A stretch of 64,000 nt of DNA from contig OZ243938.1 of the NCBI GenBank assembly GCA_965214095.1, forward strand, positions 3,808,001 through 3,872,000, read 5' to 3'. How positions within the stretch are numbered: the stretch's first letter is position 1; each line of letters begins with the position of its first letter. This stretch comes from Candidatus Poribacteria bacterium. GTDB taxonomy: Bacteria > Poribacteria > WGA-4E > WGA-3G. A model generated the notes under the pieces. That model saw only the letters and a list, made by a program, of their open reading frames with translations, did not search any database and was not told where the DNA came from. The position numbers and the translations under genes are program-made. This document shows, piece by piece, positions 49,611-52,583 of the stretch.

Positions 49611-50049
49611 ATCTTCGGTGTCAAGACCCCGTTGCTTTAGCACGGGGATGTAGACACCGCTCCTATTGTGTGTCAAGAAAAAACTTGCCTTTTAATCTAA
49701 AAACTAATATAATATCTTTAGCAATCGGCATTGGTTGTGATTGATGCTACGGCAGATAGCTAAGCAGTGAAACAATCACGTAAAAGCTTTGCTATTCAAT
49801 ACTGCTAAAGTTTTCAAAACATCTGTTGCGTGTTAGGGAAAGAAGTTTCAAAACTCATCCCGTTGATATTCACACGTGAAAATGTTTCTTAAGACCTCCT
49901 TTGGAGGTGCAGTTGGGACATCAACTGTTGGAGTAGGCTTTGTCACTGGAATGCCTGTTAGGTTTTCTAAACAAGGTCGTTGATACCACAATTGCTTGTG
50001 TGATTCTTTCAAAAGAATCACCGGAGTTTTAACTCGGTGAGTATGTCAA
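49608..50049 (+). mobile_element. Non-autonomous IS200/IS605-family mini-element (no tnpA/tnpB)
   Basis: LE hairpin 49616-49659 after TTAT; RE GAAT-hairpin-TCAA at 50015-50049; internal promoter TTGCCT-17-TATAAT. Confidence 0.8.
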
Positions 50050-50081: not shown

Positions 50082-51092
50082 TTATTCATTAACAAGTTCA
50101 TAAGAGACAAGTTCAAATTCTGATTCTACCGGCACGCCGCCTCTGGTTTGCGTTTGCGTGAATTTAATGATACCGACATTCGGAGCCAACCACTTATTGA
50201 CAACTGTAATATCAAGGTCAAAATCAGGTCCCTGAAGTTCAAAAATCCAGTGAAATGATTCTTGGATTTGGAACACGTTTTCAAAAGTACCAGCAGGGAC
50301 AGTCACAGTTTCTTCAGAGAGAACTTCGAACTCATCTTTACCGTGGTCTAATGGAAAGAGTTCAGGTGCTAATTTTGCTTGAAAATTGACGTCCCATTTC
50401 CAACCGGGTATAAGCGGAAATTTATACAAAGGTAGAAATGGAACAAACATTATCGTATCTTCAGTGCCAGGGGTTATATTCTGTGCGTGTTGGAGAATGC
50501 CTATTATGTTCCCATTGTCGTCTAACTCAGGTCCAAGATAGGAGTAGTCCGCAACATTTTCCAAATCTTCAGCAGTGTTCGTCTTTTCAAGAACAAAACT
50601 CTCAACGGTTTTTCCATCTGCAAGTTGAATCTGTATAGTATCTATAATTTCAAAGATTATCTCTGTGCCTTCAGCATCACGGTATGTCCATTTATTTCCT
50701 ACTGCTAAAGGGTAATAGTTACCTTCTCGTCCACGCCATACTTGGATATCAATGGTGCTTGTCGTAGAGCTTTTGCCATCGCTTACAGTCACATGAATCG
50801 GATATTTTTTTTCATCTTCTGGCGCGATCCAGATTGCCCCGGATTCATCCCCAGATATTTCTCCATTTGCTGCAGACCATGTGTATGTTAAGATATCGTT
50901 ATTAAGATCATACACTTGGAGTCGAATGGATACTTCTGCTTCTGGTAGAACTATCTCCGAATCTGTTTCAAAGACAGAGATTACTGGGGCAAAATTCTTA
51001 TTTCTTGGGACATTCTCATCGATGCCACAACCAACGATAGCTACAATAAAGAGGATACTAAAAAATGTCCAAACGGAACTATTCTTTTTCAT
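50082..51092 (-). CDS. Lipoprotein with Ig/PKD-like domain and beta-rich C-terminal domain
   Basis: Lipobox IVAIVGC; YYPLAVGN.W.Y, E.VTVPAGTF, W.APNVG.IK. Confidence 0.75.
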   Translation of the reverse strand: MKKNSSVWTFFSILFIVAIVGCGIDENVPRNKNFAPVISVFETDSEIVLPEAEVSIRLQVYDLNNDILTYTWSAANGEISGDESGAIWIAPEDEKKYPIHVTVSDGKSSTTSTIDIQVWRGREGNYYPLAVGNKWTYRDAEGTEIIFEIIDTIQIQLADGKTVESFVLEKTNTAEDLENVADYSYLGPELDDNGNIIGILQHAQNITPGTEDTIMFVPFLPLYKFPLIPGWKWDVNFQAKLAPELFPLDHGKDEFEVLSEETVTVPAGTFENVFQIQESFHWIFELQGPDFDLDITVVNKWLAPNVGIIKFTQTQTRGGVPVESEFELVSYELVNE

Positions 51093-51832
51093 GAGTTCAT
51101 TTCCTTGCCACGTAGGACTTCACGTGATTGCGTTGTTCCATTACCTGTGACATTATATGCGAATGTATTCATTAGCCTGTCATTTTGCGAATTATTAGGT
51201 GCAGAGCCGTGTATGATAAGCGCATTGAAGAACACGGCATCTCCAGGATCCATTTCTACTGCAACAGCGTCTTCTCGTTCTTGATAGTGTCCGGGTAGAA
51301 ATACACCGAATGTTTGATGTTTACGTTCATGTTCTTGCAAACCCCAGTTATGACTTCCTGGCACAAACTGAATACATCCATTTTCAAGGTTCGCTTCGCT
51401 TATTGCAAGTTGACAATTTATCATAACTGGTTTGTTGTTGTCATTTTTCCAATAAGCGTAGTCTTGATGCCAAGGAATTGCTGTGCCATCACCACCTGCT
51501 TTCGGTAGAAGTTTGCTATGAAACAGTGATATGTCAGGACCCATCATGCCTTCCAGCGCATCCAGAACGGCATCGGAGCGGAGAAGTCTGTTTAGTGTTG
51601 GACTCACTACTTCACTGTGCATGAGTTGCTTAATTAGCGGTGGGTGATCAGGATCATCTTCGTAGACTTCCCACGAAATACCTATGCCTTGCGTTGGATT
51701 CTCTGCCATACGGTTGTGAATGTCGTCAACTTCTTCTAAAATACTTGTGATGTCTTCTGCGGAGACGAGTCCTTTTTTTAGAAGATAACCGTTGTCTTCA
51801 TAAAATTGTTTTTCTTTATCTGTGATTCCCAT
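51089..51832 (-). CDS. PhyH family 2OG-Fe(II) oxygenase
   Basis: PWHQDYAYW, ENGC....PGSH, HGS.PN.S...R. Confidence 0.92.
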   Translation of the reverse strand: MGITDKEKQFYEDNGYLLKKGLVSAEDITSILEEVDDIHNRMAENPTQGIGISWEVYEDDPDHPPLIKQLMHSEVVSPTLNRLLRSDAVLDALEGMMGPDISLFHSKLLPKAGGDGTAIPWHQDYAYWKNDNNKPVMINCQLAISEANLENGCIQFVPGSHNWGLQEHERKHQTFGVFLPGHYQEREDAVAVEMDPGDAVFFNALIIHGSAPNNSQNDRLMNTFAYNVTGNGTTQSREVLRGKEMNS

Positions 51833-51926
51833 TTATAGTTCCTTTTGACAATAAGATTTATAGTGAATTATAATGTAAATTTGCAGAAAAATCAAGGTTT
51901 TCCTAATTGAAAACCAAGGAACATCC

Positions 51927-52075
51927 AATTGTCAAGATTCAGTATTGTGATACTCACGACGACTAAAGTCGTGTGCTTCTTTAGCACACAACTCGCCTAT
52001 GTAATTCCTGCTTCCATCTCTCGTGCCTCCCTCCTGAGCTGCTTGAGGTCTTATATTGAATTGCACTCCAACTAA
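51927..52075 (-). ncRNA. Stand-alone TnpB-type omegaRNA-like locus
   Basis: Minus strand TGGAG..TAAGACCTC..GAGGCAC..GGAAGCAGGAA..GAAGCACACGACTTTAGTCGTCGTGAGTATCAC; promoter at 52109-52081. Confidence 0.6.
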
Positions 52076-52229
52076 CAGGTATAATGAATCGGGAAATCGT
52101 CTTTGTCAATGGTGTAATACTGCTTTTCATGAACCACTTTAATTAACGCATTGCATTGGAAAAGTGTTTACATCAGTTTTGAATACTGCTACAATACCGA
52201 CAGACATTAAGATGAAAACGGATGGTCTG

Positions 52230-52583
52230 ATGGATTACACGCTTGAAAACTGCCAAAAAATAGTTGACGAATGGATTAACTCAGTTGGTGTGCGATATTT
52301 TTCGGAACTGACAAATACTGCTATTCTCATGGAGGAGGTGGGTGAGTTAGCGAGAATAATGGCACGCAAGTTCGGTGATCAAAGTTTTAAGGACAATGAA
52401 GAAGATCTAAATCTTGCTGACGAGATAGCTGATATCCTTTTTGTTCTGATATGTTTGGCAAATCAAACAGGAGTCCACCTTGAAGATGCTTTCAAGCAGT
52501 CTATTCTAAAGAAAACAGGTCGTGATAGAGATCGTCATGCTAATAATCCTAAACTCTTTTCAGATAGTGGAGAAAAAGAATAA
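52230..52583 (+). CDS. MazG-like nucleotide pyrophosphohydrolase (YpjD-like)
   Basis: VD.WI....RYF.ELTN.A.L.EEVGELAR, DE.AD.LFVL.CLANQ. Confidence 0.9.
   Translation: MDYTLENCQKIVDEWINSVGVRYFSELTNTAILMEEVGELARIMARKFGDQSFKDNEEDLNLADEIADILFVLICLANQTGVHLEDAFKQSILKKTGRDRDRHANNPKLFSDSGEKE

Follow-up and report, generated by a model that had tools for sequence, protein, structure and literature searches.

A 5'-truncated omegaRNA scaffold in a Candidatus Poribacteria intergenic spacer, probably a solo right end of an ISDra2-like tnpB family

Among the described systems closest to the locus considered here is ISDra2 of Deinococcus radiodurans, whose TnpB has been solved in several structures (PDB 8bf8, 8ex9, 8exa, 8h1j). 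In the study that describes its omegaRNA (PMC10097598), the loop of stem 1 pairs with positions -5 to -3, a UUUA tetraloop occupies positions -20 to -17, and a 116-nt core is kept in the trimmed versions that are active. Double mismatches within guide positions 1 to 12 are, by the same account, not tolerated by this TnpB. For the IS607-type TnpB of ISFba1, a review describes cleavage as abolished when the pseudoknot is disrupted (PMC13639567). The literature accepts that gene-less elements may supply omegaRNAs that act in trans (PMC10055086), and PATE-like mini-elements, as portrayed there, lack tnpB, keep the omegaRNA-encoding right end and need a TnpB in trans. With the guide RNAs of TldR, a nuclease-dead TnpB, the sequence discussed below has in common a scaffold standing apart from a transposon context and a -35-like TTGACA in the guide region. 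The remaining class is that of solo or partial ends of insertion sequences (IS remnants), and it is to this class that we assign our fragment. It shares with such remnants its make-up of a single end in an intergenic spacer, its restriction to one lineage and the company of family fragments scattered through the genome, and there is no difference of substance.

The window, by which we mean the whole stretch of 64,000 nucleotides that was analysed, contains a 378-nt spacer (51833-52210) between two divergent genes. On the minus strand lies a PhyH-family dioxygenase gene (51089-51832; PF05721, E 8.6e-37), the 3' neighbour of the fragment, and on the plus strand a gene for a MazG-like pyrophosphohydrolase (52212-52583; PF03819, E 2e-13). 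The original prediction had read part of this spacer as a stand-alone TnpB-type omegaRNA with its own promoter, possibly a domesticated guide RNA serving a TnpB or TldR encoded elsewhere. Its raw observations are present as described. On the minus strand, the promoter-like pair TTGACA-17-CATTAT (52109-52081) precedes a scaffold-like stretch of about 130 nt that closes in a hairpin, the sequence ending ...AAAGAAGCACACGAC-TTTA-GTCGTCGTGAGTATCAC with its final C at 51947. The flank that follows straight after this boundary, in the guide position (51946-51927, minus strand; AATACTGAATCTTGACAATT), contains the predicted -35 consensus, TTGACA. Homology to the transposon family described below covers 124 bases (51947-52070, minus strand), beginning 10 nt downstream of the promoter-like pair. 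Between profile-matched 52070 and position 52077, up to which the spacer is homologous to that of the relative G005, lies a 6-nt junction sequence, GTTAGT (52071-52076, minus strand).

When the spacer was searched against its own genome (5.25 Mb in 4 contigs), 51948-52054 found 6 more copies at 82-94% identity, plus one 33-nt partial match. The best of these (94%) is to 107 nt lying 3' of an intact tnpB. A genome-wide nhmmer search with a profile of the right-end family matched 51947-52070 at E 1.2e-32, which puts the scaffold-like stretch far above chance level. A search of Rfam 15 at E values up to 10 brought up nothing relevant, either with the window stretch or with a full-length scaffold. 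In the genome copies homology stops at the same ...GTGAGTATCA(C), with flanks that diverge beyond it. All 28 of the 28 copies aligned terminate at GAGTATCA(C/A) and then diverge, and the fragment in the window reaches this invariant right boundary, GTGAGTATCAC. Since its homologues lie 3' of intact tnpB genes, the fragment is right-end, omegaRNA-encoding DNA of a TnpB family with a cognate TnpB in the genome; the expectation that such a protein would be encoded elsewhere is borne out by two intact copies. The copies differ in coverage. Five in the genome span positions 2 or 4 to 154 or 155 of the 155-position profile, and that in the window spans 38-155 only, with a 6-nt insertion after profile position 48.

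Nothing else of the element lies nearby, as the original prediction had also observed. In the 360 nt upstream of the fragment no left end was found (best local alignment 14 versus a shuffle mean of 17.7); none of the 12 genome-wide matches to a left-end profile, and none of the 22 OrfB_IS605 matches in the genome, which represent several families, falls in the 64-kb window. The intact element can be seen at two other loci (L002 and L003), where the right-end copy lies 27 nt downstream of an intact 358-aa ORF with OrfB_IS605 (E 4.8e-29), Cas12f1-like TNB (1.9e-21) and HTH_OrfB_IS605 (3.4e-7) domains. This protein resembles the solved ISDra2 TnpB along almost all of its length (E 3.8e-47, residues 8-354), RuvC and zinc-finger motifs included. 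Both copies, identical at 342 of 359 positions, contain two CxxC pairs and the motifs GIDVGIR, IGIETLK and IDRDINAA, in which we take the RuvC D, E and D residues to sit. At the DNA level the two loci are 95.4% identical over 1382 aligned positions, which delimits a 1380-bp element with the left end ATGAAGGGAATT...CCAAGCAT-TT-ATGCTTGG. At 19 left-end junctions from this and related genomes the boundary is marked by (A)TGAAG. Judged from these junction sequences, (A)TGAAG is likely the target or TAM motif of the family, and it would differ from the TTGAT of ISDra2.

Other members of the family in the same genome range from nearly complete to fragmentary. At two loci (L006 and L007) the right end follows a shortened tnpB ORF. 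A further copy, L004, is gene-less and has a left end about 310 nt upstream of its right end, and is thus a mini-element. L005, which covers profile positions 31-155, resembles the window copy in that neither local alignment nor the left-end profile finds a left end. L008 (C1:3607997-3608106) is a mirror image of the window fragment, a right-end module truncated at the 3' side that covers positions 3-106 and lacks the boundary. Weak solo left-end matches of the same family also occur elsewhere in the genome. Y1_Tnp domains are matched 5 times, 4 of them beside a different tnpB family with a 421-aa ORF.

The RNA structure of the family was derived from right ends of two sources, 20 stretches in genomes of the genus and 80 loci that encode TnpB relatives of 36-87% protein identity; all but 3 of these 80 records are titled Candidatus Poribacteria MAGs. 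The RNAalifold consensus of 40 elements has 19 predicted pairs, 11 of which show compensatory changes. It begins with a 5' hairpin, stem 1, that spans the tnpB stop codon and contains three strongly covarying pairs; pair 8:14 is CG in 19 elements, GC in 11 and AU in 10, and pair 5:17 is GC in 17, CG in 13 and UA in 7. A long-range helix, C(C/U)UG : CA(G/A)G, has its 5' strand in columns 32-35 (pair 32:107 is CG in 22, UA in 14 and UG in 4), and is accompanied by an internal hairpin and by a stem near the guide that is closed by a UUUA loop (at pair 163:185, CG in 23 elements and AU in 16). A pseudoknot completes the architecture. In 67 of 68 distinct elements (76 of 78 with another de-duplication key), positions 2-5 of the stem 1 loop are complementary to the tetramer just ahead of the terminal A-N. 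Only pairs 3 and 4 are independently informative in this count, because loops were extracted with G as their first base and 3' tetramers as NNTC, and the three pair types (GAUA:UAUC, GGCA or GACA:UGUC, and GGCU:AGUC) stand for lineages and not for 68 independent events. At these informative positions, pair 3 is U:A in 42 elements versus C:G in 24, and pair 4 is A:U in 64 versus U:A in 4. When the register was slid to eight other positions, 0 of 68 elements paired fully at any of them; with the partners shuffled 1000 times, 47 elements did so on average and 54 at most. The topology is that described for the ISDra2 omegaRNA, with a stem 1 loop that here pairs with -6 to -3, a UUUA stem close to the guide and overlap between the scaffold and the tnpB stop codon; the scaffold from stem 1 to the boundary is longer, at about 134-164 nt versus the 116 nt given in that description.

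Against this background the window copy is conspicuously incomplete. It consists of the 3' 118 profile positions only and, starting at position 38, lacks stem 1 and with it the 5' strand of the pseudoknot, as well as the 5' strand of the long-range helix; it also differs from ISDra2 in having neither tnpB nor left end. The guide-proximal stem 4 (ACGAC-UUUA-GUCGU), the internal hairpin and the boundary are intact. Without stem 1, the pseudoknot or the helix 5' strand, an RNA copied from the fragment would, on the covariation model, be unable to adopt the family omegaRNA fold, and without a left end the fragment is immobile. The label of a stand-alone omegaRNA is therefore not one that we retain for a scaffold truncated in this way. 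Substitutes for the missing parts were sought in the adjoining DNA. No hairpin with a GAUA loop is present in 52071-52110. A CCTG at 52079-52076 was considered as a replacement for the helix strand and rejected: it belongs to the spacer, is shifted by 5 nt from the proper register and lies upstream of the start that the -10 (52086-52081) would set. Nor does the copy extend back to the ACCTGT at 52080, because ...TTATACCT is common to the relative G005 and hence belongs to the spacer. The minimum free energy fold of the window RNA alone is uninformative (z = -1.55, with 12 of 200 shuffles folding as well). The positions that are present are well preserved, at 94% identity to the nearest active copy, and as this divergence is no greater than that between the two intact elements (95.4%), decay is not demonstrable from the sequence.

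Complete gene-less mini-elements of the same family, which like PATE-like elements lack tnpB and keep a right end, offer a useful comparison. In L004, and in the copies of a related genome, G003, a left end is paired with a complete right-end module, stem 1 among its parts. Left end and stem 1 are both absent from the window copy, which could thus be neither mobilised nor folded as those are. The many G003 mini-elements (L022-L027 and L028-L033) come in two architectures, all with stem 1. In one a left end of about 105 nt is joined by a linker of about 27 nt to a right end of about 147 nt, and in the other a stretch of about 195 nt separates a left end of about 62 nt from a right end of about 148 nt. 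In three further relatives (L034, L035 and L036, in G013, G017 and G014 respectively), only the last 67 nt match the family right end (91-93%) and the upstream sequence is unrelated, giving these loci a chimeric look; at L039 in G016 the match runs over 530 nt and is not chimeric. These four loci have a nearly identical flank, AATACTTGG(A/C)AT..., and on that ground are probably one orthologous site.

The history of the spacer can be followed in related genomes. PhyH and MazG-like genes stand side by side in most of the 18 same-genus genomes searched, and spacers were aligned from 7 relatives. In five of these (G017, G013, G014, G012 and G002) no right end is present and the spacer is shorter by about 130 nt. 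The other two, G010 and G006, hold unrelated inserts. Outside this set, the spacer of G001 is occupied by an IS with a gene for a 384-aa DDE transposase (PF13808, PF01609), and that of G005 by about 1.25 kb made up mostly of other repeats; homology of the window to G005 and G001 resumes at about 51902-51910. The right-end repeat itself is common, being found in 23 of 39 other same-genus genomes, where matches span only 61-203 of the 271-nt query, that is, the repeat and at most 16-19 nt more. Neither junction of the fragment is shared by any of these 39 genomes, which is not the conservation across MAGs that a domesticated guide RNA would suggest. With no shared junctions, and with spacers that are empty or otherwise filled, the fragment is best seen as a lineage-specific arrival in a spacer that mobile DNA has remodelled repeatedly. 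As a separate observation, the four different inserts in G001, G005, G006 and G010 (L010, L011, L019 and L020) mark the PhyH-MazG spacer as a recurrent landing or rearrangement site.

Taken together, these data make it very probable that the fragment is a 5'-truncated, lineage-specific solo right end, ordinary IS200/IS605 debris of an ISDra2-like tnpB family. Most likely, an element, either full-length or a gene-less mini-element, once inserted in the variable spacer between the PhyH and MazG-like genes, and a later deletion or imprecise repair would have taken away the left end, any tnpB there was, and positions 1-37 of the right-end module. We infer this order of insertion followed by deletion, and with it the loss of guide-RNA function. 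The genome offers parallels for such debris in its other same-family fragments (positions 31-155, positions 3-106 and the weak solo left ends). As the front part needed for guide RNA folding is missing, transposon debris is the most likely identity of the fragment, in preference to a domesticated guide RNA, and a residual trans-acting role is unlikely.

The alternative closest to the original prediction is a functional stand-alone omegaRNA gene, transcribed from TTGACA-17-CATTAT, ending at a hairpin at 51915-51896, loading TnpB and carrying the fixed guide AATACTGAATCTTGAC. The layout has some appeal. The promoter-like motif and a terminator-like hairpin downstream would frame an RNA of about 180 nt, as expected of a stand-alone RNA gene, the guide-proximal scaffold and boundary are intact, two intact cognate TnpB genes could in principle bind a related RNA, and gene-less elements supplying omegaRNAs in trans are, as noted above (PMC10055086), an accepted idea. 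The frame is less secure than it looks. Although TTGACA-17-CATTAT matches a promoter at 10 of 12 positions, and is found in exactly this form twice in the 64-kb window, where 0.01 would be expected, the AT-rich spacer region of 650 nt has 7 promoter-like sites versus 1.9 expected from shuffles, and given this excess the motif alone says little. Nor can it be called the element's own promoter: the alignment of G005 to the window starts on the MazG side and extends as far as 52077, running through the motif, with TTTATA and CGTTAT in place of the hexamers, so that the motif belongs to older spacer DNA and was not brought by the element. The hairpin (51896-51915, minus strand; GGTTTTC-AATTAG-GAAAACC, then TTGATTTTTC) is only weakly terminator-like, begins 32 nt past the right-end boundary, and overlaps the conserved phyH -35 region with its 3' half and T-run. 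Of four metatranscriptome runs, in each of which 13-17% of the words sampled from a 3-kb stretch occur, three (X2-X4) have contigs that touch the fragment at 51946-51982 only and the fourth (X1) gave none; these contigs continue into unlike sequence on both sides, thus derive from other copies or other organisms, and are uninformative for this locus either way. The guide is no more persuasive. The 20 nt past the boundary are simply local flank, as at any IS200/IS605 right end, and the guide 16-mer has no other exact copy in the genome. Among 19,122 TGAAG sites just one has at most 3 mismatches to the 16-nt guide; this best site, C1:1083624, has its 3 mismatches at guide positions 3, 5 and 7, all within the first 7, and was set aside as chance. 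A second candidate, C1:180243 (a 16-mer with 1 mismatch, or a 22-mer with 2), is preceded by GGCAC and not by the TAM, lies in apparently coding DNA and was likewise attributed to chance. The 21-mer of TAM and guide has 0 exact matches in the viral contig collection. Relatedness of the flank to other flanks was also rejected, since at least 49 of 300 shuffles reach the score obtained with the L004 flank (CTTGACAAT) and with four relatives' copies starting AATACT, and 9 of 300 do so in the best case, L028. A TldR variant of this idea fares no better, in spite of the TTGACA in the guide region: both cognate TnpB copies keep their RuvC and zinc-finger motifs and so are not TldR, the locus is not conserved, and no genomic target was found. 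Given a scaffold without stem 1, the pseudoknot partner or one strand of a covarying helix, and junctions seen in 0 of 39 congeners, we regard a functional gene as decidedly unlikely. A weaker form of the idea, in which the truncated scaffold would be transcribed from the fortuitous spacer promoter as far as the hairpin at 51915-51896 and the pseudoknot-less RNA of about 180 nt would enter the two intact TnpB proteins as a chromosomally fixed, non-mobile guide or as a competitor that damps their activity, has a very slim chance of being right. If such RNA did enter TnpB, a transposon end would have been caught at an early stage of becoming a host-owned RNA, and if it were both made and bound, a rare snapshot of guide-RNA domestication in progress.

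Two further explanations concern the fragment as DNA. Insertion-sequence ends can create hybrid promoters, and the fragment could have been co-opted as cis-regulatory DNA, either by giving PhyH a long leader from the 52109 promoter or by supplying the -35 of a hybrid promoter for the MazG-like gene. A plus-strand TTGAAT-18-TATAAT (52056-52085), also matching at 10 of 12 positions, does span the junction and points at the MazG-like gene, its -35 (52056-52061) lying inside the fragment's 6-nt insertion region and its -10 (52080-52085) in old spacer. Both genes, however, have nearer promoter-like sites, TTGATT-17-TATAAT before PhyH (51895-51867, minus strand) and TTTACA-17-TACAAT before the MazG-like start (52167-52195), in DNA that is alignable in 7 of 7 relatives, and the relatives do without the fragment, which leaves co-option highly improbable. 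The fragment might instead be the scar of aborted TnpB-triggered homing, in which an empty TAM site was cut, copying from the right flank of a sister copy stopped within the right end, and end joining followed. Such a process would give a precise 3' boundary and a variable 5' truncation, and three fragments do combine an exact 3' boundary with differing 5' ends (positions 38 and 31, and a 71-nt piece of another family); the six unassigned nucleotides at the left junction would also fit. On the other hand, the 3'-truncated fragment (3-106) and the solo left-end matches are what undirected deletion would be expected to leave, the left junction has no TGAAG, and the sample of fragments is far too small for the pattern to weigh much. 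We consider aborted homing extremely improbable, and insertion followed by loss of the front part stays our preferred account of the solo right end.

As it stands, the fragment itself matters little, other than as a reminder that scaffold-like motifs may be nothing more than transposon debris even with a pair of promoter-like hexamers beside them. Two questions make a quick test for candidates of this kind: whether the copy reaches stem 1 and the pseudoknot partner, and whether its junction is common to relatives. Of more lasting use, the omegaRNA architecture of a mostly Poribacteria tnpB family is now defined with covariation support for stem 1, a 4-bp pseudoknot, a long-range helix and stem 4, and relatives are shown to carry complete mini-elements of the family that have no gene.

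Some neighbouring features deserve mention. A second solo 5'-truncated right end, 71 nt long (49979-50049, plus strand), lies 1.9 kb from the fragment in the spacer after a PKD-domain gene. It terminates GAGTATGTCAA / ...GGTGAGTATGTCAA, a UGUC-type boundary, and is 93-94% identical to the 3' flank of another tnpB family with 391-aa ORFs (C1:490797 and C1:1008377), in agreement with the prediction that the two pieces belong to separate families. The window also holds, at 2502-2585, a member of a short repeat family of about 60-125 nt that is unrelated to the tnpB element and recurs at no fewer than 15 further genomic sites; one copy directly precedes the L002 element, and a related repeat fills part of the G001 spacer. 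Finally, contig C2 of the genome (32,066 bp) has a G+C content of 64% versus 41% for the main contig, and may be foreign or mis-binned.
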